Shown in pieces: positions 1-12,039 of a stretch of DNA of 64,000 nucleotides (position 1 is its first letter; every line of letters begins with the position of its first letter). The DNA is from an uncultured Nitrososphaeraceae archaeon. Lineage in GTDB: Archaea; Thermoproteota; Nitrososphaeria; Nitrososphaerales; Nitrososphaeraceae. The notes below the pieces were generated by a model. That model ran no database searches. It saw nothing but the letters and a program-made list of their open reading frames with translations, and was not told where the DNA came from. A program made the translations under genes and the position numbers. The stretch is from assembly GCA_963837175.1 (NCBI GenBank), contig CAWIMJ010000050.1, forward strand, positions 334,133-398,132, in the 5' to 3' direction.

Positions 1-2
1 TA

Positions 3-383
3 AAACAGTTAAAAAATTTTGAATTCACAGTTAACCTTGATGCCAATCAAATTTTTCCAAACGATGAAATAAAGCAAGATATCGTTAGCAAATACAAATC
101 AGCTGAATACAATATTGCCAACTTAAAATATGATCTATTAGGATTTAATATCAGTGCATCAGATATCAAAATACATGTCGATCCCACAAAAATTGACATA
201 ACAAAGACAAGAGTCTATATCCCTGTGATGCTAGCAAACAATGTCAAAGTAAGCAATGGAGTAGTTAATTTGGATTTTAACAAAATTGACCTTGGATCAA
301 TTTATGCTATTTACGATAGAAATCTAGATAAAATGACAGTTCATATTCCTATGGTTATTGCATACAGGTATATTCAGCAATGA
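3..383 (+). CDS. Hypothetical protein, C-terminal part (runs off the window start)
   Basis: Open frame from base 3 (KQLKNFEFTVNLDANQIFPNDEIK...HIPMVIAYRYIQQ) to TGA at 381-383. It is absent from the ORF track because no start codon is in the window. Confidence 0.7.
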   Translation, partial: KQLKNFEFTVNLDANQIFPNDEIKQDIVSKYKSAEYNIANLKYDLLGFNISASDIKIHVDPTKIDITKTRVYIPVMLANNVKVSNGVVNLDFNKIDLGSIYAIYDRNLDKMTVHIPMVIAYRYIQQ

Positions 384-537
384 TGAGATATTCACTGCTA
401 CTTGTAAATCATTTTAAACATGAAAGATTTGGTAATATCTTCTTAGAAATCAATAACTAAACAAACTGTTAATTATAAGTGGTTAAAATATGATTCGCTA
501 TAGTAGCAGTAAATCATAAAATTATCTATTTACATTA

Positions 538-1027
538 TTAAATTCTGGTGCTATCTTTTCTGCAATTATATTTAGCAATTTTTCTCTATATGGGCTTGAA
601 TTTGTCCAAACAATTTCAGTAAATCCCCAATCAGCATATTTCTTCAATTTCTTTATTCCTTCTTCTCCATTTGAAAAAACAAGCAACTTTCTTCCAATGT
701 ATCGTCTCCAATAACCTTACCACTCTTCAATTATTCTTGGATCATGTATTTCTACTTCAATGAAAGCTTTTATTATGGCCCCTCTCCAAAACCTAATTGA
801 TTGCAATGCCTTTTCCTTATTCTCATCATATGAAGTAGGAATGAAGAGTATCTTTTCTAGAGAATCATAATCTTTTCCCGATTTTTTTGTACCTTCTTTA
901 ACTACAGGTAATAATTTATTTTTTATAGATTCGATATTAAGTTCATTAGTAACAAGTCCGTGGCCTTCTTCTCCTGCTAGTCTAGCTGATAGGGGTCGGG
1001 GTCCAGCAATAAATAATGGAATTGGCC
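538..1027 (-). pseudogene. Remnant (C-terminal half) of an LLM-class F420-dependent oxidoreductase (G6PDH-like)
   Basis: Manual translation gives PIPLFIAGPRPLSARLAGEEGHGLVT...EKILFIPTSYDENKEKALQSIRFWRGA...HDPRIIEE, then a stop/frameshift, then KKLKKYADWGFTEIVWTN. The N-terminal half is missing. Confidence 0.7.
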
Positions 1028-1124
1028 ATATATTATAAAGATAGAAGGAAAACTAGAACAAAACAGTTTTACCAAAAGCCCGGCATTATCATGATTTATC
1101 GCTTCATAAAGTCTGTACAAACTA

Positions 1125-2081
1125 TTAATTTTTCAAAAGGCGACTACGCAAAAAGCAATTGAATCCCTTTTCATTAACATTTGCAGCCACAAAAATATTA
1201 TTATGAGATGCATTGTGTTCAATAAACTTTGACTGTCCACGCATTGAACCATTCAACATCACTTCAATATGGCCTTTTTTTAATTTAAATAAAGATGGTT
1301 GTTCTAACAATGCAACAGCAAAAACATCATGCAAATTACAAATATCTCGTGTAGAAATTGCAAAATCTAGTAGGGAAGACATTATTCTTATCAGGGACCT
1401 TTTACCTTTAATATTTTTTATCTCTCTGAGGAATTCTGGTCCTACTGCACATACAGGATTCGTAGTGACATCTAAGCCAACGAACTTTCTATTTACATTC
1501 ACATTTTGATTAATTACTATTTTTGCTGCTTCAGGATCACAATAGAAGTTAAATTCTGTAGAATGGTTGAAACTACCAAAAATTTTATTAGCTAATCCAA
1601 ATGCGCCGCCCATGACAGAAATTTCTCTTAAATTATTTATTATAGAAGAAGACTTCTTATCTATGAACAGCTTTGCAATATTAGTTAGAGGTCCTGTTGC
1701 GACAATTGAAACTTCACGTCTCCTATAATTCTTTAAAGTAGATACGATGAAATCAGATAATTGTATCTTTGAAAGTATTTTTTTATTTTTAGGTACTTCT
1801 AATTGTAATCTCCCAAGACCTCCTTTCCCATGGAAACGTTCCTGACGGACTGTTCTTCTTTTGATAAGAGGTTTTGTTGCTCCCTGCAAAACAGGTATGT
1901 CTGTCCTGCCTAATGCATGTAATAGTTTAAGTGTGTTAAGTGCGCCAGCTCTTGAACCGATATTTCCATTTACAGTAGTAATCGCTAGAACTTCAATATC
2001 TACAGATTGTAATGCTATAATAATCGCTATCGCATCATCGATTCCAGGGTCAACGTCTAAGATGACTTTATAACTTCTCAT
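1125..2081 (-). CDS. Inosine/uridine-preferring nucleoside hydrolase
   Basis: DVDPGIDDA Asp-box, ATGPLTNIA, MGG, EFNFYCDPEAA and HD motifs. Confidence 0.93.
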   Translation of the reverse strand: MRSYKVILDVDPGIDDAIAIIIALQSVDIEVLAITTVNGNIGSRAGALNTLKLLHALGRTDIPVLQGATKPLIKRRTVRQERFHGKGGLGRLQLEVPKNKKILSKIQLSDFIVSTLKNYRRREVSIVATGPLTNIAKLFIDKKSSSIINNLREISVMGGAFGLANKIFGSFNHSTEFNFYCDPEAAKIVINQNVNVNRKFVGLDVTTNPVCAVGPEFLREIKNIKGKRSLIRIMSSLLDFAISTRDICNLHDVFAVALLEQPSLFKLKKGHIEVMLNGSMRGQSKFIEHNASHNNIFVAANVNEKGFNCFLRSRLLKN

Positions 2082-2239
2082 TATTGCTAGATGTTAGAAA
2101 GAGTATAATCCGTAAGTATTTTTACATTACTTTGGCATATTAGGTTAGTCCACAGAAGACGAATCAACATTGATATTATAATAGAGAGATTTATAAAACA
2201 GTTCTAGATTTAATTATCAAAGATACAAATGCTATTACA

Positions 2240-3125
2240 TTGAAGTTCAGATTTGCAAAAAAGTCAGACAAGGAAGAAATTTTAAAATTCTGCATTGATA
2301 CGTTTGAATGGGGAGATTACATCAACCAAGTATGGGACATGTGGTTTTATGAATCAAACGGAGCTTTATTCGTAGCAGAGGATGAAACAAGAAACAACAA
2401 AGGATCCACAATAGCGTTTTCACATGTGTCATTATGTCCTCACAGAAGAAAGATCTGGCTTGAAGGAATTAGAGTAAATCCAGATAACAGACGAAGATCT
2501 ATAGCAACAGAATTAATAAGAAAAATGTTGTCCTATGGAAAACGAAAAGGAGCAAGAGAGGCGTCTGCAATAGTAGCCGTGAATAATCTTCCATCACAAT
2601 TAATGATGAAGAAAAGCGGTTTTAATGTTATATCAAAATGGATCTATTCTAGTTTTGATAATTTCCCCCAAAAATTTGGGAACTTTAATGCTAGAATTGC
2701 TACCTTTAATGACATAAAAAAAATACAAAATTATTTAAAACAATCAGCAACGTACAGAATCATCGGGAAAGCGCTATGTTAATTCATGGCGATGGTATTC
2801 ATTTGATTCTAAGAATTTATCAGATATTATTAAACACCGAAAATTGATTATAGCAGAAAATGATATTATCGAAGGAATGACAATTATCGATGGAGATGGA
2901 TATTGGAATAAGAACAATGTCTTTCAAATAGTTTATCTTGACTCTATTAATGTTTCTTCATTATATGATCTGATAGGCTTTGCTATGATGTTATTACAAT
3001 CAGCTCATGATCGGTATAAGAGGATACAGATATTCGCTCCTCAAACAAGCCAGATATCATCGGTTATAAGAGAATTAAATATAATTAACCCAGATGAATT
3101 TTTGTTATATGGAAAGTCAATTTAA
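2240..3125 (+). CDS. GNAT family N-acetyltransferase (one gene, frameshift near 2758)
   Basis: WLEGIRVNPDNRRRSIAT acetyl-CoA motif and NNLPS. Removing one base near 2758 joins ORF 2240..2782 through SSGKRYVNSWRW to ORF 2844..3125. Confidence 0.8.
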
Positions 3126-3440
3126 TACCTTTATAATGACGTTTAGCTCGCACCGGGTATGGATGGAAGAAAGATAAGAATAGAATTCATGTACTGGTAA
3201 CAAACGCCCGCTATTGTTATTTGGTCCTTCATCACTTTTCTATCCAAACAAGTCGCTCTCTTGATTCTCATTCTGAAGCATCTGGATCAGTTGGTATGTC
3301 TAATTTGCTTTTAGAATGATAATATATCCAGAATATGTAATGCTAATAAATCTAATATAAATAATAGAATAAGATGCTGAAAGTAATATAAAATTTTTCT
3401 AAACCTTTAAATCATATGTTCAAATTGGTTTGTATAGAGT

Positions 3441-4517
3441 ATGTCAGATATTATATCATGGGACAAAGCTATTGACAAAAAAGTAAAGTCAAGTGATAAC
3501 CAAGATATAGGTAAAGTTCAAAGTATTACAAAGGATTATATTCAAACAAAAGAAGGAACGGTAGCCAAAAAATATTATTTTATTCCTAAGTATTATTTTC
3601 AAGGATATGACGGTGATAATTTATGGGTTTCATTAACCAAAGATCAAATAAAGGCTAAATTTGAGAGAGAAAAAGAACCTGAGCCTGGTGAGTTACAAAC
3701 ACCCGAGTATGCAGAAAGAAGAACAGCAATTACTAAACAGTATCCTGATTTTGATAGTAATATTCCCCAATATGCTTCTCCATCTACTTTATCGCCTACG
3801 ACTTCCTCTACTACTACTGCTGCAGATGACAGTGTTGGTATGCCGTGGGATAAAATTATCGATAAAAAAGTTAAATCAAGTGACAACCAAGATTTGGGAA
3901 AGGTGCAAAGCGTTGCTGCTAATTACATCGAAGCACAAGAAGGCCATCTAAGCAAGAAACGCTACTATATACCTAAACATTATATCCAAGGATTCGACGG
4001 CGAGCATTTGCACGCGGCATTAACTAAGGACGAAATAAAAAGTCGTTATGAAAGAGATGCTCCTCCATCCGAATCAGAATTTCAGAATCAAGAGAAAACT
4101 GAACAAAATCTTCGACAGGGGTCTGCTTCTCCGAAGTCTGTTGAGGGAATACCGTTGATGGCTAAGGAGCCAGGGCTTGAGCTTCGCGGAGAATATTCAG
4201 GTAAATCAGTCAATATTCCATGGGAGGAGGTTATCCATAAACATGTACTCACAAGCGATAACGTTGACATAGGAGAAGTAGATAGAGTAGGAAATGAGTA
4301 TATAGTAGTTAGAGAAGGTGTGGTAAAGACTCATATCTATTATATTCCAAAAGTTTACATCACCAATTATGATGGTAGTACACTTTGGATAAACGCTCCT
4401 AGTGGATTAGTAAGTGCTAAATTTGAACGAGAAACAGAGCCAACACCAGAAGACATTAAAAGGCTTGTAGATGAGGCAAAATCTAAGAGCGGCGCCACAG
4501 AGAAGTTTGAAAGCTAA
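3441..4517 (+). CDS. Protein with three tandem PRC-barrel-like repeats
   Basis: Three copies of W(D/E)xxIxKxVxxSDNxD(I/L)GxV...EG...YxIPKxYxxxxDGxxL, separated by S/T/P/Q-rich linkers. Confidence 0.8.
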   Translation: MSDIISWDKAIDKKVKSSDNQDIGKVQSITKDYIQTKEGTVAKKYYFIPKYYFQGYDGDNLWVSLTKDQIKAKFEREKEPEPGELQTPEYAERRTAITKQYPDFDSNIPQYASPSTLSPTTSSTTTAADDSVGMPWDKIIDKKVKSSDNQDLGKVQSVAANYIEAQEGHLSKKRYYIPKHYIQGFDGEHLHAALTKDEIKSRYERDAPPSESEFQNQEKTEQNLRQGSASPKSVEGIPLMAKEPGLELRGEYSGKSVNIPWEEVIHKHVLTSDNVDIGEVDRVGNEYIVVREGVVKTHIYYIPKVYITNYDGSTLWINAPSGLVSAKFERETEPTPEDIKRLVDEAKSKSGATEKFES

Positions 4518-4941
4518 AATGACACTTGATAACTCAAAATACAGACACTTATGATGGGGTTATGTGAACCATAAGAAGGGATGGTCGTAGGGGTGGAACT
4601 TACGCATCTCGATAGCTGGTACAACAAGTACCTGAAACGATACTAATTTATGAATGAACTGATGTGGAAGAGGTAGACTGACAATTGGAATACTATCTTT
4701 TTGTCATTAATATTAGAACTACTTCTAAAGTTGGTTATATCCTTGACAATACTCTAAATTAAAACACACAAATTTGTTATATTTGTCAATTTCAGAATAT
4801 AGTTTTTTAGTTATATTAGGATGATAGTTTTGTTATTTACCTATTGGAATACAAATTCTCTTGTTATTTTTCATAATTGACCGTTTCTAGAATGGTTATA
4901 TTATGCATAATTGTATGATTTCTCACCACAGCAGCATTATC

Positions 4942-5118
4942 TTATTGGGTAAGATCAATAATGCTGTTTCTGATAATCAATTTTGCCTCTGGCGAAATAT
5001 TATACCGCTCAAGTACTTTTGTCGGTTCCTTTACAAGTACGTTCCTAAATTCTGGTTCACTAGCAGCTTTTAGCAGAATTTCGCTAATGACCTCAGCGTC
5101 CTTCTGTCGATTATGCAA
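4942..5118 (-). CDS. 58-aa NHLP-clan (Os1348/Franean1_4349-like) leader-peptide-like protein; candidate partner or substrate of YcaO-TfuA
   Basis: TTG at 5118 to TAA at 4942: MHNRQKDAEVISEILLKAASEPEFRNVLVKEPTKVLERYNISPEAKLIIRNSIIDLTQ. It matches the NHLP pattern (I/L)xxKAxxDPEFRxxLxxDPxxVLxxY. A TATA-like TTATATA lies 26-32 nt upstream, and the gene is divergent from ycaO. Confidence 0.78.
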   Translation of the reverse strand: MHNRQKDAEVISEILLKAASEPEFRNVLVKEPTKVLERYNISPEAKLIIRNSIIDLTQ

Positions 5119-5202
5119 TTAACAAAACGTTTACAAAATCTGCTATATAATCCTAATGCATAATTCGGAAACTTGATATGAACTAATTTATGGGTTTCAT
5201 CT
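5119..5202. promoter_or_regulatory. Divergent promoter region between the NHLP-like gene and ycaO-tfuA
   Basis: 84-bp AT-rich spacer. TATATAA at 5144-5150 reads TTATATA on the minus strand at the typical archaeal TATA distance from the TTG at 5118. Confidence 0.45.
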
Positions 5203-6528
5203 ATGATTATAGGAGAGTTACGTCTTCAACCGAGGCAGAAATGGACCATTAACGGTACATCGAGAATAAGCCCTCCTCAAGAAATCCTGAAGAGAATTAC
5301 TTCTATATCACGAAAGATAGGAGTCACCAGACTTGCTGATATCACTAACATGGATATACTTGGCATTCCAAATTATTCAGCGGTTCTACCAGGGACTGAA
5401 GATTATATATGGGTTTATAGTGGCAAAGGCTCCACTAAGGCTCATGCTAGAGCCAGTGCTCTGATGGAATCTATAGAGCGATATTCCTCGCTTCCAAGCG
5501 GTGGCCCAAAAAATTTTATCCAAGGCAGCTATGATCAACTATCAAAGTCATTTACAGTTCTTCATCCAGACAAACTTTTAGAACCAGTTAGATTTCAATA
5601 TACTAATGACATGCCAATGGATTTTCTTCCTGGTTTTGATCTATTTACAAATGAACAGATATTGGTACCGGCATCAATAGCATTATTTCGTTATTCTCCC
5701 GTCCCTCCTTTTGTTAATCCCTTTGCATTTCATCATACAAATGGACTTGCATCTGGTAACGTACTAGAGGAAGCTATTTGTCATTCATTATGTGAGGTGA
5801 TAGAGCGCGATGCAACCAGTTTGGCTGAACTACGTGCCAGTGCTATCCCTTTTCATTTTTTACGACACATCACAAATACGCTGAAGGCAAAAGGGTATGC
5901 GCTAAACTCTATTCCTACAGATAAATATGTGGACGATCCTAATATATTTCCTGATGTAAATATTTCACAGATTGAATTTCAACCAGTTAAAGCTTTAGCA
6001 AAAAAATTTCTACAATCCAAAATTCCCTTGATTATTAAGGACATTACATCGGACATTGGAATTCCGACATTTAACGCTAGCAGTATCGAATGGATAAGCC
6101 ATGATTATGGTTATCTTGCCGAAGGGCATGGAACACATCCTGATGCACGTATTGCATTATTGCGTGCTATAACAGAGGTATCACAAACTAGAGCCGCTAA
6201 CATTCAAGGTGCAAGAGATGATCTCCGAAAAATCAAATACGGACAAAACAATACAAATGATAAACGTGCATGGCAATTTATGCAGTCAGATAAAAACGTA
6301 AAATTTTCTGAGATTGCTACGTATTTTAACCAAGATATTCTTGATGATATCAAGTTGATTCTAGAACATCTAAAACAGATTGGATTAAAGAGAGCCATCA
6401 TCGTAAATTTAACTAACGATAGCATTGGAATCCCTGTTGTAAGGGCAGTAGTACCTGGCCTTGAGACTTTCAAAATCACAAAATCTATCATGGGTTGGCG
6501 AGCAAGAAGGTATTTTAAAAATGAATAA
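5203..6528 (+). CDS. ycaO: YcaO family ATP-dependent backbone-amide activating enzyme (TfuA-associated, thioamide-forming type)
   Basis: GVTRLADITNMDILGIP, SGKG...ARASALMESIERYS, TNGLASGN..EEAICHSLCEVIERDA, RAITEVSQTR and VPGLE. There is no C-terminal PxP motif, and the gene overlaps tfuA. Confidence 0.95.
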   Translation: MIIGELRLQPRQKWTINGTSRISPPQEILKRITSISRKIGVTRLADITNMDILGIPNYSAVLPGTEDYIWVYSGKGSTKAHARASALMESIERYSSLPSGGPKNFIQGSYDQLSKSFTVLHPDKLLEPVRFQYTNDMPMDFLPGFDLFTNEQILVPASIALFRYSPVPPFVNPFAFHHTNGLASGNVLEEAICHSLCEVIERDATSLAELRASAIPFHFLRHITNTLKAKGYALNSIPTDKYVDDPNIFPDVNISQIEFQPVKALAKKFLQSKIPLIIKDITSDIGIPTFNASSIEWISHDYGYLAEGHGTHPDARIALLRAITEVSQTRAANIQGARDDLRKIKYGQNNTNDKRAWQFMQSDKNVKFSEIATYFNQDILDDIKLILEHLKQIGLKRAIIVNLTNDSIGIPVVRAVVPGLETFKITKSIMGWRARRYFKNE

Positions 6529-7186
6529 GCCTATAATATTTCTAGGTCCTAGCCTGAACCACGAGAGAGCAAGACAAATCTTTCAAGCTGATTTTAGAGG
6601 ACCCGCAAAAAAGGGCGATCTCTTAAGAATTTCAAGTGTTGTAGATGATACAACGATAGTCTGCCTAGTAGACGCATTATTTCTCCAAGATTATCCTCCT
6701 TCTCCAATAGAAGTCTATCAACTGATGCTAAATAAAAATATAAAACTATTTGGAGCAGCAAGTCTTGGTGCATTGCGTGCAGTTGAGCTCGAAAAATTTG
6801 GAATGATTGGGATCGGAAAAATTTTTGAACTTTATAAGAAAGGCAAACTAACTGCTGATGACGAAGTAGCAGTTACCTTCACAGAGGGTGAGCACCAACT
6901 CCAGTCTGAGGCAATGATAGATATTCGATTTAATTTATTTTTGGCATATAGAAATGGAATAATTAATGAAATTACAAAAAAAACAGTAGCTAAAGTAGCC
7001 AAAAGTATCTATTTTCCATACAGGAATTATATCGATATCCTTGACCAAACAGAAAAGCACTATCCTGCGATAGCCGACGATCTGAAACTATTTCGAACTT
7101 ATATTATCAAAAATAGGCAAAGTCTGAAGGAGCGCGATACAATAAAACTAATTAATTATGTAAAGAAGCTTTTCATTGAATCTTAA
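6521..7186 (+). CDS. tfuA: TfuA-like protein
   Basis: IIFLGPSL, GPAKKGD, VDALF, GAASLGALRAVEL...GMIGIGKIF, DDEVAV and SEAMIDIR. The ATG at 6521 overlaps the ycaO stop, suggesting translational coupling. Confidence 0.95.
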   Translation: MNKPIIFLGPSLNHERARQIFQADFRGPAKKGDLLRISSVVDDTTIVCLVDALFLQDYPPSPIEVYQLMLNKNIKLFGAASLGALRAVELEKFGMIGIGKIFELYKKGKLTADDEVAVTFTEGEHQLQSEAMIDIRFNLFLAYRNGIINEITKKTVAKVAKSIYFPYRNYIDILDQTEKHYPAIADDLKLFRTYIIKNRQSLKERDTIKLINYVKKLFIES

Positions 7187-7914
7187 ATTATAACGTATTT
7201 GACTAATAATAGTCTAATTCATGAAAATTAGTGCTTCCATTTGCCTTTAATAATGGTGCAAAGTTCTGATTTGGCTTGTAACAGGGAGTTGAATGCATGA
7301 CATACTTTCTTTAGAATGATTATTCTCAAATCGAGAAATTAAAACATATTAAATGACTTGTAAATTTAGAGTGCAATATTCTATGTCTGCCTACTGTAAA
7401 CTAGAAAGCGAAAAAATAATGTATGAACGTGAACAATTATCATTTATTTGAAGACTTTTAAAATATCATTTCTCTAATATTATGATCTTTAAATTCTGAG
7501 TCTATACAAGGGACAAATTACAAGGAACCAGTAGTCAGACGATTAGAGTGATTAGGCAATTCATAGCTAGGAAGACAACAAATTATATATATTCTAGATA
7601 TGGATTTTGCTCTTGTTTTCTCTACTAATGGATTTCAATATGCTACTGTAATGGATGTTATAAAAAAAATCTACTATAAAAAATATTTTTTAACATGCCA
7701 ATTTTTTATTATTTTACATGATTCAGATTCTCCTTGCGCTAGATATACTGGTTTCCTCAATAATACATATCAGCAAGTCATCTTCGGATTTTTGTCAATC
7801 AGCTTTAAATCATTAAATTGGTCCTGACTCTGTTGGTCTTTAGAAAAACTCTCGTTATTTTTTATATTTATATTAATAGAATGTATCTATTAACAATGAT
7901 ATCGATCCTTATAA

Positions 7915-8097
7915 TCATCTGATCTTCTCCAATATCACCCTTGACATATTAGTATTGTAACCCACTACGCTCTTTATGGTAAAGCCCTCTTGTAATATCT
8001 TATCGATTTTAACCCATGGTTCATCTTGTTTGAAGCCTGGAATTATTACAACCTTTATTAATTCTCCATCATATTGAATTGACTTGTCATTAGACAT
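7915..8097 (-). CDS. Small hypothetical protein (60 aa, MSNDKSIQYDGELIKVV...)
   Basis: Protein-like composition; probable ATG at 8097. Confidence 0.5.
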   Translation of the reverse strand: MSNDKSIQYDGELIKVVIIPGFKQDEPWVKIDKILQEGFTIKSVVGYNTNMSRVILEKIR

Positions 8098-8455
8098 TAT
8101 AATTAATAAGAACAAAGAATATTTAATGAATATTATTATACTTTATTAGATGTACGAAGATCCTGCCATAACTATTATTATTTTTTCGAAAACTGATAAT
8201 TATGATAAATCTTATTGTAACATCCTAGTTATAAAATATTTTATACTATCATCAACAATTATATAAATTATTATAGGCACGTAGGAAGAAAAAGATCGAA
8301 AAAGATCCTAATTATTATGAATCCCATTGATTAACTATTGATGTCCCAATGATATACTTCTTGTTGAGCTAATTACAATATAATTATATAACCTTATTTT
8401 CTAAATCACATAATTTTAAATCTTAGAGAATATATATCACAAAAGAGAATCTAAC

Positions 8456-8755
8456 TTGAGTAATAACAAGCAATTTCTCTTGCAACAGCTAATGTGGATT
8501 GCTATATATTTTGCTATCAGTCTTGCTATTTCAATTATAATTCCGTTTCCATTCTCCCTAGTCGCTATAATAGGTGTTGTCTTGTTGCTAAGTTTTTACG
8601 TAAGAAAAAGGATGATGAAAAGAATGGGAGTCGGAATGGGAAACTTCTCTATGTTTGGTTCAAGTTCAGTAAATTATTATTGTATGAGCTGCGGAACAAA
8701 ACATAATGAAGCAGCCTGCCCTAAATGCGGATCCAAAATGAAAAGAGTTGGATGA
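8456..8755 (+). CDS. Small two-TM membrane protein with C-terminal Zn-ribbon
   Basis: Hydrophobic hairpin (..PFPFSL..) followed by YYCMSCG.KH.E.ACPKCGSKMKRVG; paralog of 53375..53719. Confidence 0.85.
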   Translation: MSNNKQFLLQQLMWIAIYFAISLAISIIIPFPFSLVAIIGVVLLLSFYVRKRMMKRMGVGMGNFSMFGSSSVNYYCMSCGTKHNEAACPKCGSKMKRVG

Positions 8756-9151
8756 CTAAAACTAACATTTCAATTCTTTCTCTAGAATGATTTTAGTCTA
8801 TGTTCGAATTCTGTTAATCTGCAATTTTTCTAATTAGCTCGCTACCTATAAATTATAAAAAATGATTATGATATTCTGCTATAGTTGAGATTTCACGAAC
8901 TAATTTTAGTTATAGTGCCCAAGTATGCTAGTATTTCAGAAAAGCCGCTCATGATTTGCTAAGCTAAATAACTAGAGTTTCCTTGCGGTCGCGCCCTGAC
9001 AGAATTAGCAATTTAACTTCTATAAAGTTATCTTGCAACAGATCATACTTTTTTTGGTGGTTGAACGATAAAAAATTACAATGACTAATATATCTTAGAA
9101 ATAGTAACAAAACATTACTTTAATATACAAATTTAGAACTAGGATCGTTCG

Positions 9152-10318
9152 ATGGACGCTAGGAATATTGGCTTACGAAATATCGAAGTTGCTGATACAC
9201 GTATTTGTTCCATTGATGGAGAAAACGGTAAATTGATTTACCGTGGTTATGATATCTTAGATTTAGTTAATCATTCTACCTTTGAAGAAACAGCGTACCT
9301 ATTATTATTTGGTGAACTACCAAGTCCAGATGAGCTAGAAGATTTTTCAGGAAGATTAAGAGAAGCCCGTAGTGTTCCTGGGACAGTTATTAGAAATTTA
9401 AAAACACGTCCAAAGAGAGCACGTCCTATGGATGTGCTTCAATCAAGTGTCTCAGAATTAGCCGACTATGATCTGAATATTGAAGACGATTCAAAAGAAG
9501 CCAACATTAGACGAGCAATCATCCTTATCGCAAAAATTCCTACAATTGTCTGTGCGTGGAATAGAATTCGCACAGGTAATCACATTGTAGACCCCCTGGA
9601 GGAAGGATCCCATTCTTCCAATTTTCTTTATATGCTTCGCGGAACACCGCCAACTGCAGAAGAAGCAAAGGTATTTGACATTTGCCTTATCTTACATGCA
9701 GAGCATAGCTTCAATGCATCAACTTTTGCAGCTAGGGAAATAGCTTCAACAAGAGCTCATATGTACGCTTGTATCGGCGGTGCTATCGGTGCATTATCCG
9801 GCGAATTACATGGAGGAGCAAACATACAGGTTATGAAAATGTTGCTTGAAATCGATGACATTTCTAACGTAGAGAAATGGATAGAGACTAGATTGCAACA
9901 AGGTGGGAGAATTATGGGAATGGGTCATGCCGTGTACAGGACTACAGATCCAAGGGCTGAAATACTTTCGAGACTCTCAAGATCAATGTCAAAGCAAACA
10001 GGCACAAAATGGTTTGAGATTACAGAACGTCTTGAAAACTTCACAAAAAAATACATGCTTGAGAATAAGAAACAAGCTATTTATCCCAACGTCGACCTAT
10101 ATAGCGCCTCGCTTTATTATAGCATAGGCATTCCTATGGATCTCAATACCCCTATCTTTGCAATTTCAAGAATTTCGGGTTGGTGTGCACATATAATTGA
10201 AGAGAAGTTTGCAGAAGCCGCTCCTAAACCTGCCCTATATAGACCCAAAGCTGTTTACGTAGGAAAATATTGTGGACCTATGGGATGCGAATATACGCCT
10301 ATACAAAATAGAGAATAA
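9152..10318 (+). CDS. gltA: Citrate synthase (citrate/2-methylcitrate synthase family)
   Basis: LIYRGY, HAEHSFNASTF, LSGELHGGAN, GMGHAVY..DPR and YPNVD motifs. Confidence 0.96.
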   Translation: MDARNIGLRNIEVADTRICSIDGENGKLIYRGYDILDLVNHSTFEETAYLLLFGELPSPDELEDFSGRLREARSVPGTVIRNLKTRPKRARPMDVLQSSVSELADYDLNIEDDSKEANIRRAIILIAKIPTIVCAWNRIRTGNHIVDPLEEGSHSSNFLYMLRGTPPTAEEAKVFDICLILHAEHSFNASTFAAREIASTRAHMYACIGGAIGALSGELHGGANIQVMKMLLEIDDISNVEKWIETRLQQGGRIMGMGHAVYRTTDPRAEILSRLSRSMSKQTGTKWFEITERLENFTKKYMLENKKQAIYPNVDLYSASLYYSIGIPMDLNTPIFAISRISGWCAHIIEEKFAEAAPKPALYRPKAVYVGKYCGPMGCEYTPIQNRE

Positions 10319-10661
10319 TGGTAAAGCATGATACATTTGATTAGGATAACTGTTTCTAATGATCCCTCTACAAACCTATTCTTTTTTTTCTTAAACTTAT
10401 TATTATTTTTCAATAGAGTATTATGTATGCGGCCGATTGTAAATAGAGTTAATTGATCATATTCTATATGTTAATTCATACAAATCTATTGTTCATATAT
10501 TAAGATAGCAAGAAATTAGAAATATCTATATTATAAGCAGCAAATCCCCCATTGAAAAGAATAGGCAGAAAGCATGGTTTAGTATGATATTTAAATAAAT
10601 TATCTATTGCTATTAATTACCCAAATCAATAGAAATTTAGATACTCTCTACCTATTATTAC

Positions 10662-11051
10662 ATGAAAATGCTTAACAGTATCATCGCTATAGTCGTCATT
10701 TCTTTCATGGTGGTTGGCGTGCTTTGGGGAGTAAGCAACATAATTAACCGCCCTGAAGGATCATCATCAATAAAAAACGTTTCAGGCATTTTGTTAATAG
10801 CTCAAAACAATGCATTTAACAATACAAATCCTGATATCTATGCTGCCGTCAATGTACCCGAGAAGCTACTAGTAGTCAATAAGGATTTTGTAAGACATGA
10901 TCTTATTGTAGATGTATTAAAGATTAATACAGCTTATTTGTCTTCTGAGCAGGGTTTTACAACTGCAATTGCATCAAAAAAGGCTGGCACATTTGAATAC
11001 TACTGCTCCTTGCACCCAACCACAATGCGTGGTAAAATAATAGTCAAATAA
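10662..11051 (+). CDS. Membrane-anchored cupredoxin (blue copper) domain protein
   Basis: N-terminal TM/signal segment; type-1 Cu ligands H(DL)...YYCSLHPTTMRG. Confidence 0.88.
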   Translation: MKMLNSIIAIVVISFMVVGVLWGVSNIINRPEGSSSIKNVSGILLIAQNNAFNNTNPDIYAAVNVPEKLLVVNKDFVRHDLIVDVLKINTAYLSSEQGFTTAIASKKAGTFEYYCSLHPTTMRGKIIVK

Positions 11052-11556
11052 TGATTGCATTCAGCAGCCAGGTGCAAACATACTCATCGTCTAGAATATT
11101 AAGAAGCTTTCTCTATTTAGTGTACCCCCAAATCTTGCCACGAGGCGATAATTATAACGTAATGAAATATTTCGTCATCTTTTATTTCGATTTTCAATAA
11201 TCTATATAAATATAAATTAATCCTTAAAAATTGATATGTATGAGTAAAGTCCATCAGACTCTAATGTTTTAATGCAAAAACATATAATATAATTGATCAT
11301 ATGTACGGATTATATGGGTTATATATTGTCTAATTTCTACACTTCCAGTTGGAGGTACTTAATCATTCATTCTCTAAAATTATATAACTAGCTCGATTTT
11401 ACACCTCTCTAAATTCCTAACTAGCCTAGTATTTCTTCATTATACATTGTTCCTATTCTTTTGGCCGTCTTCATACGAAGGATAATTATTAACATGGTCA
11501 ACTTCGTAAAGAATAGACATTATAAACAGGAATTTATCATAGATTTATAGAGAATA

Positions 11557-12039
11557 TTGAAAGTATATCTTCTTTCTAAGAGTGATAGCTCTTATTTGAC
11601 TCAAATGATTCAGAAAAAATGGCCAAGGAATATACTGCCTAGAATAAAAAGTTTCAAGGTCTATGAAATAGAACCTGACAAGCGCATACTTCAATATGAA
11701 GGTTTTATGGCAGTTCAGGTAAATCGTGATACTGTCCTGCCCTTTCTAGGAAGAATCGAAATAATTGAGAAATTTCCTTCTGTAAAAATAGATATGGGAG
11801 CTGTTAGTTTTGTTTGCAACGGAGCCAAAATAATGAGACCTGGTATAACAAAATTTGATAACTTTCACAAAGGAGATATTGTTGTTATAAAGGATGAAAT
11901 ACATGAAAAAACATTGGCAGTTGGAATCGCTCTCGAGGATAGCAAAATAGCTAGTAATAACTCAAGGGGTTATGTGATAGATAATTTACATTATATCAGC
12001 GACAAATTTTGGAAGGCACATAAAGAAATTACCTGGTAA
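11557..12039 (+). CDS. PUA-domain RNA-binding protein (DUF1947/MCTS1-Tma20-like)
   Basis: PSVKIDMGAVSFVCNGAKIMRPGI...GDIVVI...AVGIAL...NLHYISD. Confidence 0.9.
   Translation: MKVYLLSKSDSSYLTQMIQKKWPRNILPRIKSFKVYEIEPDKRILQYEGFMAVQVNRDTVLPFLGRIEIIEKFPSVKIDMGAVSFVCNGAKIMRPGITKFDNFHKGDIVVIKDEIHEKTLAVGIALEDSKIASNNSRGYVIDNLHYISDKFWKAHKEITW

Follow-up and report, generated by a model that had tools for sequence, protein, structure and literature searches.

In methanogens, YcaO and TfuA form thioglycine on McrA (Nayak 2017, PMC5589413; Mahanta 2018 as cited in PMC7581889), and the YcaOs of ammonia-oxidising archaea fall in the same clade as these methanogen enzymes (PMC5589413). That ammonia-oxidising archaea carry YcaO-TfuA genes has been known since 2017 and 2021 (PMC5589413, PMC8120280), the latter paper being a survey of TfuA-type thioamidated RiPPs in which eight clusters were counted in Thaumarchaeota. 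The passages on archaeal YcaO-TfuA in these two papers name no substrate, and a full-text literature search with all terms combined returned nothing else relevant. The Os1348 family (NF038399) has as its founder the 85-aa protein Os1348 of Pseudomonas sp. Os17, the neighbours of which are a GNAT, a peptidase and a SagB-type dehydrogenase (PMC7726476). The NHLP (proteusin) leader MprE7 engages the YcaO cyclodehydratase MprC as a folded domain (PMC12455567; PDB 8tb1); proteusin leaders are about 81 aa long, include beta strands, are recognised by an RRE domain through an L(X)4L motif, and precede GG and a core rich in Cys (PMC12455567).

The locus described here lies in a window (the whole stretch of DNA analysed, 64,000 nucleotides) from an uncultured Nitrososphaeraceae archaeon. 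It resembles thioamitide and other TfuA-type clusters in its adjacent ycaO-tfuA pair, and differs from thioamidated RiPP clusters in having no tailoring, protease or export genes. The new element is a conserved partner, matched by an insertion in the enzyme; the two provide a first testable candidate for the target of these enzymes, and the entire evidence is computational. The features are the following.

4942..5118, minus strand: small gene for a 58-aa four-helix protein, a probable core-less, Os1348-like domain of the NHLP clan (open reading frame, conservation, profile homology)
5119..5202, no strand assigned: bidirectional promoter region of 84 bp (sequence; motifs recurring at ycaO-adjacent loci)
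5144..5151, minus strand: TATA box of the small gene, ATTATATA, 25 nt upstream of its TTG
5164..5179, no strand assigned: conserved motif on the ycaO side, TTCGGAAACTTGATAT, its end 23 nt before the ycaO ATG
5203..6528, plus strand: ycaO, 441 aa, ATP-dependent backbone-amide-activating enzyme of the TfuA-associated type (PF02624)
5839..5985, plus strand: YcaO insertion, codons 213-261, predicted docking arm (alignment break against MJ1094; clade distribution)
6521..7186, plus strand: tfuA, 221 aa, starting at ATG 6521 (PF07812)

The locus shares with the methanogen McrA system the same two enzyme families and the same gene order, with genes that overlap or adjoin. YcaO matches PF02624 at 242.7 bits (cut-off 25.7, E 8e-72), has M. 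jannaschii MJ1094 as its closest solved relative (4.6e-38) and is the sole YcaO found in a genome search; residues E89, E92, R93, E198, E201 and R202 are invariant in 23 sequences, the glutamates among them presumably representing the conserved ATP/Mg-binding motif. TfuA matches PF07812 at 118.5 bits (cut-off 30, E 2e-34). Its start at ATG 6521 (MNKPIIFLGPS) is set by the N-terminus conserved in 22 relatives, the listed open reading frame starting at TTG 6461, and with this start the gene overlaps the end of ycaO by 8 nt (ATGAATAA) instead of 68 nt. Unlike in the methanogens, MCR alpha was not found in this 91.5%-complete genome by a search that matches two methanogens, while AmoA is present, in line with the original prediction of an ammonia oxidiser devoid of MCR. 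Both proteins also score under the cut-offs of the McrA-thioamidation equivalogs, YcaO with 284.4 bits against 365 for TIGR03266 (McrA-glycine thioamidation), the match being broken in two at residue 212, and TfuA with 197.9 bits against 235.2 for NF033432. A further difference, from M. jannaschii MJ1094 as well as from the YcaOs of family f12, is an extra arm of some 35 residues (a segment of 49 residues versus 15 in MJ1094) that extends the helix of the EVIERD motif (188-229) and adds a loop, with an AF2 block pLDDT of 83-93 over residues 211-250 and 93 for 251-260. This insertion is present in the YcaOs of families f1, f4 and f9 and absent from those of f12, the genomes of which lack the small gene, so that arm and small partner occur together.

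The small gene had been predicted as a 58-aa open reading frame on the minus strand, 84 bp from the divergent ycaO-tfuA pair, and its coordinates and translation were confirmed. It comprises 58 codons and a stop codon at 4942..4944, starts with TTG directly after an in-frame TAA, diverges from the ycaO ATG at 5203 and encodes a protein with an estimated mass of about 6.6 kDa. The open reading frame is present in all 24 other genomes of the family and in G000, nearly always as a single copy per genome, and its stop position is conserved. The gene is real and subject to purifying selection: of 153 pairs, the 60 whose dS lies between 0 and 3 have a median dN/dS of 0.108, and invariant residues use up to six codons, whereas all 18 of 18 sequences keep TTG as codon 1. 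The TATA-like box announced upstream of it is found as ATTATATA; this motif and TTCGGAAACTTGATAT both recur upstream at the ycaO-adjacent loci compared, and the ycaO-side motif is absent from the unlinked loci L009 and L016. At the 36 loci where the two genes adjoin, mostly 70-90 nt separate the small gene from ycaO. The mRNAs are probably leaderless or nearly so.

As a single sequence, the small protein matches the NHLP leader model TIGR03793 at 18.2 bits (E 0.0017, model positions 3-35 of 77, cut-off 50.9) and the Os1348-family model NF038399 at 17.1 bits (model positions 3-38 of 63, cut-off 40), and all its single-sequence NHLP-clan matches score under the curated cut-offs. The same models are matched throughout the family at E≤0.1, NF038399 by 23 of 25 members (best 5.9e-6) and TIGR03793 by 21 of 25 (best 5.1e-5); in a genome-scale NF038399 search, which also gives matches in seven of 14 control genomes, the small protein appears at E 0.049. 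Searched against PDB sequences, the family profile retrieves nitrile hydratase alpha chains (E 5.4e-8 to ~1e-3), aligned in their N-terminal helical region on an A-x-(D/E)PEF(K/R)-x-x-L-L helix, a homology characteristic of the NHLP leader family, and the NHLP leader 9cjx_A (E 0.004), and matched no Os1348 structure. Profile-profile comparison (hhalign) with nine Os1348-family proteins, chosen from the match list of the small-protein profile itself and of which eight reach the NF038399 cut-off (one at exactly 40.0 bits), gives a probability of 99.0% and E 8.1e-18 over 44 columns (8-51 versus 3-46). Of the named sets in the ESM Atlas, the Os1348 family also comes nearest, its score of 0.82 counting as no more than a lead. 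The NHLP-like leader that had been proposed is supported by the agreement of matches across the family and by profile homology, with the caveat that the single sequence does not reach the curated cut-offs. The AF2 model of the small protein (pLDDT 87) consists of helices 3-20, 22-30, 32-37 and 43-57. Foldseek of this model against the PDB returns nothing at E≤0.001, the best matches being the gallate dioxygenase DesB C-terminal domain (E~1) and 8tb1 (E 4.9, TMq 0.55, rmsd 2.8 over 42 columns, not significant); because the domain is too small, Foldseek gives no fold verdict.

Like the Os1348 family, these are small helical proteins encoded beside modification genes, here YcaO-TfuA. Unlike its members, which extend 20-45 residues further with an extra helix and a variable tail, the archaeal protein falls short of the family cut-off and stops 7 residues past the end of the homology. 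NHLP leaders reportedly lead into a cleavage site of the GG type and then a C-terminal core. The protein here ends at residue 58 (...SIIDLTQ) with no core, GG site or other cleavage motif, and Gly and Cys are absent throughout family f1, which bears out what had been said of its short tail; the last ~6 residues differ between families. By homology, the small protein therefore appears to be a leader domain only, related to the leaders of the NHLP clan.

Among 121 genomes of the order, 31 hold both the small gene and TfuA, five TfuA only, two the small gene only and 83 neither. The five comprise one genome with the gene at a contig edge, one with ycaO split across contig ends and three with a YcaO at 35-37% identity; the two comprise a 67%-complete genome and a weak match. 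The module is found in three of the four AmoA-bearing families, and co-occurrence may rest on few events, since kin are not independent. The small gene adjoins ycaO at 24 of 27 loci in one set and at 36 of 80 in a larger one, in which it is not next to ycaO at 41. Synteny, which had been put forward as a check, is thus kept in most lineages but lost in one large Nitrososphaera lineage, in which both genes are retained unlinked. Genomes G020, G009, G066 and G083 keep both genes apart from each other, at a distance of 0.92 Mb in G020. Across lineages, ycaO-tfuA is the only widely conserved neighbour of the small gene; the other neighbours in the window (nucleoside hydrolase, GNAT, DUF2171-repeat protein, zinc-ribbon membrane protein, citrate synthase and cupredoxin) are not conserved with it. 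No protease, ABC exporter or tailoring gene occurs in the window neighbourhood, and the original prediction was right that no protease or transporter is adjacent. In family f9, and confined to it, a gene for an SBF-family transporter lies between the small gene and ycaO.

Modelling of YcaO with the small protein, also suggested at the outset, gave a predicted complex with an ipSAE of 0.78 compared to 0.01 for the best control. This score expresses model confidence on input alignments made in this analysis; in the calibration of the tool, 58 of 80 solved complexes attain the ipSAE mark used, as do 2 of 110 mismatched pairs. The model comprises a single YcaO chain and the small protein alone, and its runs share at least 94% of contacts. 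All 58 residues of the small protein are folded in it (pLDDT 86-88), and both ends of the fold take part in a predicted interface of 73 contacts with YcaO residues 216-247, on the insertion. The predicted docking face is the conserved one, made up of helices 1-2 with the EPEFR turn and of helix 4, and the interface residues of the small protein are more conserved than its other residues (0.90 versus 1.39 bits, one-sided p 0.03). As in MprE7-MprC, a structured NHLP-type domain would be recognised by a YcaO through tertiary contacts, here predicted ones; in contrast to proteusin leaders, the protein has 58 residues, is all helical, and has neither core nor RRE, docking instead, according to the model, on an inserted YcaO helix.

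Most likely, then, the small protein is a dedicated partner of YcaO. The reading that we tentatively place first has this folded, core-less NHLP-clan protein dock on the YcaO arm as the dedicated partner of the YcaO-TfuA pair, and leans towards its being the substrate of YcaO itself. In the cell, the protein would bind the insertion arm carried only by these YcaOs, docking would put one of its ends, the presumed site of modification, into the YcaO active site, YcaO would use ATP to activate a backbone amide and TfuA would deliver sulfide, to give a thioamidated small protein that stays uncleaved inside the cell. An NHLP-like gene beside a maturase in RiPP clusters is said to be normally the precursor, which argues for a substrate, as does the small gene having its own promoter and being free to part from the enzyme genes. 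That NHLP leaders engage enzymes, a YcaO among them, as folded domains through protein-protein contacts (PMC12455567) points the same way. Against a substrate speak the lack of a core in a protein that is folded over all 58 residues in the complex model, the variation of the last ~6 residues between families, and the single copy in nearly all genomes. Should the small protein be modified, it would be, to our knowledge, the first thioamidated archaeal product assigned outside MCR; should it be unmodified, it would represent a new way to aim a YcaO enzyme, and either outcome concerns abundant soil nitrifiers.

Somewhat less probable, yet a serious possibility, is that the protein acts in trans as a leader that has lost its core, a permanent, non-catalytic and itself unmodified subunit that activates YcaO or aims it at another archaeal protein, as McrA is the target of the methanogen enzymes. 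The end of the protein just past the Os1348-family homology would then mark the lost core, and constraint along its whole length, a large predicted interface involving both ends of the fold and the absence of a protease or exporter nearby fit such a subunit, as does a YcaO nearest to the protein-modifying methanogen type (PMC5589413). A stoichiometric subunit would, however, more usually be encoded in an operon, whereas the small gene has its own divergent promoter and has separated from the enzyme genes in G020. Moreover, no candidate target was found, and the gain of a docking arm is more simply explained by recruitment of a substrate. We know of no natural leader in trans. A leader in trans would re-use a RiPP recognition device for protein modification and would constitute a second case of thioamides in proteins outside MCR.

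A third reading makes the small protein an unrelated conserved neighbour, for instance a small regulator, with the complex a false positive and the co-occurrence a matter of shared ancestry. A single gain and a single loss could suffice to explain three families, mismatched pairs do on occasion reach the ipSAE mark, and one large lineage has the genes unlinked. We nevertheless consider this unlikely, as YcaO is predicted to be contacted on the very segment that is specific to genomes with the small gene, the three genomes whose YcaO-TfuA has no insertion also lack the small gene, and no DNA-binding family was matched in domain searches. A classical RiPP, cleaved and secreted as a short modified peptide, is suggested by the NHLP-clan homology beside YcaO-TfuA and by the transporter gene of f9 but seems very improbable, given a protein devoid of cleavage motifs, GG or other, and of a variable core, a window neighbourhood with no protease or ABC exporter, and a transporter confined to f9 that belongs to no peptide-export family. 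A ThiS-like sulfur carrier was rejected, since the small protein is built of helices throughout and lacks both a C-terminal GG and Cys. Copper binding was considered as a conceivable role of a thioamidated protein, and the data speak neither for it nor against it.

The GNAT gene at 2240..2782 was likewise considered as an Os1349-like partner and rejected, being seen at only six of 80 loci. A tRNA search of positions 1..12000 and an Rfam family search of 3000..10000 returned none, and a read screen of public runs gave at most 0.15 of the sampled words in every run. Soil metatranscriptome contigs from three studies, of which strand, ends and level are not readable, which may stem from library DNA and in which uncovered parts carry no meaning, cover 4943..5098, at most a weak hint of transcription of the small gene. 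The gene had been called hidden; the open reading frame is real, but the term overstates the case, the nearest match in the ESM Atlas (score 0.90) being a cluster of 574 Nitrososphaerota 'hypothetical proteins' 57 aa in length.

The 58-codon ORF originally predicted opposite ycaO-tfuA was recovered as described and is a real gene. It opens with a TTG immediately 3' of an in-frame TAA, contains no internal Met and lies 84 bp from ycaO, the two genes being on opposite strands and pointing apart. The features of the locus are as follows:

4942..5118, minus strand: small gene, 58 codons
5144..5151, minus strand: conserved spacer element ATTATATA, 25 nt before the small-gene TTG
5164..5179: conserved spacer element TTCGGAAACTTGATAT, ending 23 nt before the ycaO ATG
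5203..6528, plus strand: ycaO (PF02624 at 8e-72)
from ATG 6521, plus strand: tfuA, downstream of ycaO (PF07812 at 2e-34)

Homologues of the small gene are present in the window's own genome and in 24/24 other genomes of the same family, with a median dN/dS of 0.108 across 18 family sequences (60 of 153 pairs, those with dS between 0 and 3). Codon 1 (5116..5118 in the window) is TTG in all 18 small genes of family f1, the window's own, 25 nt behind a TATA box, while invariant Leu and Pro positions are written with 4-6 different codons, which is the pattern expected of a start codon. The f4 and f9 families mostly use ATG. We infer that the small-gene and ycaO mRNAs are both leaderless or near-leaderless; it is unusual for a probably leaderless mRNA to have a conserved start other than AUG, and the TTG may keep translation at a low rate. 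The stop codon, too, is conserved in position, and constraint extends over the full protein length, tail included. The AlphaFold2 model built from a 25-row alignment is a compact domain of four helices (pLDDT 87). The gene had been called hidden, and is indeed unannotated here, but it is not unknown, since the family is present in public collections as a 574-member Nitrososphaerota cluster of unnamed hypothetical proteins. Genome G022 has two copies, C279:124-294 and C169:7115-7282 (E 1e-21 and 3e-26), and a single YcaO was found; the extra copy lies at the beginning of a contig, and it may represent a second locus or a strain mixture.

The ORF finder placed the tfuA start at TTG 6461, whereas the N-terminus kept in 22 relatives (MNKPIIFLGPS) begins at ATG 6521. 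This start overlaps the ycaO stop by 8 nt, so the proposed coupling of the two genes survives the revision. By Pfam, YcaO and TfuA are ordinary family members, and both score below the McrA-equivalog cut-offs; the window's genome carries amoA and one YcaO, and MCR alpha was not found in it. With respect to expression, 22 public runs contain small shares (0.05-0.15) of the sequence words of a 2.6-kb stretch, and, for four runs aligned to the window, 4943..5098 is covered by contigs of three soil metatranscriptome studies. These are in part near-identical, and others carry 8-13 differences and diverge exactly at the stop codon, as would relatives with a conserved coding region. Such contigs give neither strand nor level and the libraries may contain DNA, so the coverage is at most a weak hint of transcription.

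Single-sequence matches of the small protein are sub-threshold and all point in one direction: TIGR03793 NHLP leader (E 0.0017), NF038399 Os1348 family (0.0044), and Frankia_peptide, NHase_alpha and TOMM_nitrile_2. At E<=0.1, NF038399 is matched by 23 and TIGR03793 by 21 of 25 family members. The family profile retrieves nitrile hydratase alpha chains (5e-8 to 1e-3) and an NHLP leader (0.004) from the PDB sequence set, and 161 proteins at E<=0.001 from 1.84 billion representatives. Among 60 of the 161 inspected, the top matches are short archaeal-type proteins resembling the query, several with over-called N-termini or frame breaks, and the lower ranks contain proteins the size of NHase alpha, matched in two stretches, together with leader-like peptides of 65-110 aa that bear C-terminal tails. 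Eight of ten scanned leader-like peptides reach the NF038399 cut-off, one at exactly 40.0 bits. Alignment by hhalign of the family with Os1348-type sequences, the latter picked from the small-protein profile's own matches, gives 99.0% probability (E 8e-18, columns 8-51 versus 3-46). Os1348 itself comes from Pseudomonas sp. Os17 and has 85 aa; its precursor role is proposed and not proven (PMC7726476). Os1348-type proteins continue for a further 20-45 residues as a variable tail, whereas the archaeal protein ends 7 residues past the homology, its last ~6 residues varying between families; it amounts to a leader domain by itself and has neither GG nor Cys. As judged from sequence, the small protein is thus homologous to NHLP-clan leaders but, being below cut-offs and coreless, is filed as related to, not a member of, TIGR03793 or NF038399. 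The same search returned P0028 (769 aa), with a hydrophobic N-terminus and four tandem C-terminal units, in each of which an NHLP-like helix pair precedes a conserved motif rich in Cys and Gly; it resembles a repeat protein of the clan or a precursor made of several units.

In a first locus set ycaO adjoins the small gene in 24/27 cases, the other three being one at a contig end and two unlinked. A search of 185,579 species genomes was summarised by its best 80 loci, all of them from Nitrososphaeraceae-type MAGs and isolates: in 36 ycaO is divergent, in most cases at a distance of 70-90 nt, 3 have no room for it and 41 are without ycaO within the flank examined. Most of these 41 are 'Nitrososphaera sp.' records, and an OGG-like neighbour gene occurs in 36 of them, which fits a single relocation. 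In complete genome G020 the small-gene and ycaO loci are 0.92 Mb apart and YcaO retains the clade-specific insertion described below. No further neighbour of the window's small gene is conserved across lineages in these 80 loci. Occurrence over the order was tallied by genome; kin are not independent and the counts may reflect few evolutionary events.

Occurrence of the small gene and ycaO-tfuA in genomes of the order
Both genes: 31/121, families f1, f4 and f9
TfuA only: 5/121, G064 (contig edge), G100 (ycaO split over contig ends), G068, G085 and G110
Small gene only: 2/121, G121 (67% complete) and G053 (weak match inside a 292-aa frame)
Neither: 83/121

Four families are identified as ammonia oxidisers by AmoA (f1 13/13, f4 9/9, f9 11/11, f13 14/14). 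The module of small gene and ycaO-tfuA occurs in f1, f4 and f9; a search of 14 f13 genomes, of which many are complete, did not find it. The module therefore does not belong to the core machinery of ammonia oxidation. Family f12 loci L060, L061 and L062 (G068, G110 and G085) hold a second, distant YcaO-TfuA lineage (YcaO identity 35-37%) in non-ammonia-oxidising relatives; AmoA was not found in these genomes, nor a small-gene homologue in 8-10 kb around the loci. In family f9 (L064 4496..5464(-), G032) the small gene and ycaO are separated by an SBF-family transporter gene (PF01758 at 4.8e-19) that shares the strand of ycaO.

Alignment of the window's YcaO to Methanocaldococcus jannaschii MJ1094 (PDB 6pe3/6peu) breaks between residues 212 and 262, with 49 residues versus 15. 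This insertion is found in f1, f4 and f9 YcaOs and is missing from the three f12 YcaOs, whose genomes are without the small gene. Modeled alone by AF2, it extends a helix with an invariant EVIERD motif to residue 229, plus a loop (block pLDDT 83-93 over 211-250 and 93 over 251-260). The model of YcaO with the small protein reached ipSAE 0.78 (three runs 0.79, 0.78 and 0.70), the best control reaching 0.01. In calibration of the method the ipSAE mark was reached by 58/80 solved complexes and 2/110 mismatched pairs, counts that hold only roughly here, where each protein was supplied as an alignment of our own; a pass supports binding and does not show it. The runs share at least 94% of contacts, with small-protein pLDDT of at least 86. 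The predicted interface joins YcaO 216-247, inside the insertion, and 438-440 to small-protein residues 4-30 and 45-58, the latter being more conserved than the rest (0.90 versus 1.39 bits, one-sided p 0.03). We are aware of no comparable complex with a solved structure, and so it seems unlikely, in our judgement, that the pass reflects a structure already learned by the model. Co-occurrence, insertion and predicted interface, three lines that are not fully independent, converge on one segment, and the small protein probably binds YcaO.

What this binding would serve is answered more tentatively. The small protein may be the YcaO substrate, a possible reading in keeping with the customary logic of such clusters, with the separate promoter of the small gene and its ability to move off from the enzyme genes, and one that offers the simplest ground for the enzyme's gain of a docking arm. 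It is somewhat doubtful that it is instead a non-substrate partner, a leader in trans or adaptor; for this speak the missing core, the folding of all 58 residues in the complex model, the full-length constraint, the nearly always single copy per genome, the absence of a maturation or export gene, and the large protein targeted by YcaO's nearest relatives. An unrelated neighbour of ycaO-tfuA is improbable, and a classical secreted RiPP very improbable.

Recent work reports that NHLP leaders are recognised by enzymes as folded domains, through protein-protein contacts, which in the case of a YcaO cyclodehydratase run partly via its RRE domain (PMC12455567; PMC12537861); here, in contrast, docking is proposed on an inserted YcaO helix, with no RRE. 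YcaO-TfuA in ammonia oxidisers is already in print (PMC5589413; PMC8120280), the latter counting 8 such clusters in Thaumarchaeota, and the pertinent passages of both name neither substrate nor small partner; the literature found on TfuA with ammonia-oxidizing archaea or Thaumarchaeota otherwise comprised two unrelated preprints. The case for a small partner is entirely computational.

Elsewhere in the window, 3441..4517(+), convergent with the small gene, encodes a 358-aa protein with three DUF2171 repeats (PF09939, 2.8e-14, 3 stretches), a gene present in 12 of the best 80 loci. A GNAT acetyltransferase ORF (2240..2782(+)) is followed by a 93-aa ORF (2844..3125(+)); each occurs in 6 of these 80 loci with an identical split between locus groups, and the two ORFs may form a fixed pair or belong to a single gene read in two frames. 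Finally, 10662..11051(+) encodes a small cupredoxin-like protein (PF13473, 5.5e-7) with a hydrophobic segment at the N-terminus, a type of protein typical of copper-dependent ammonia oxidisers.
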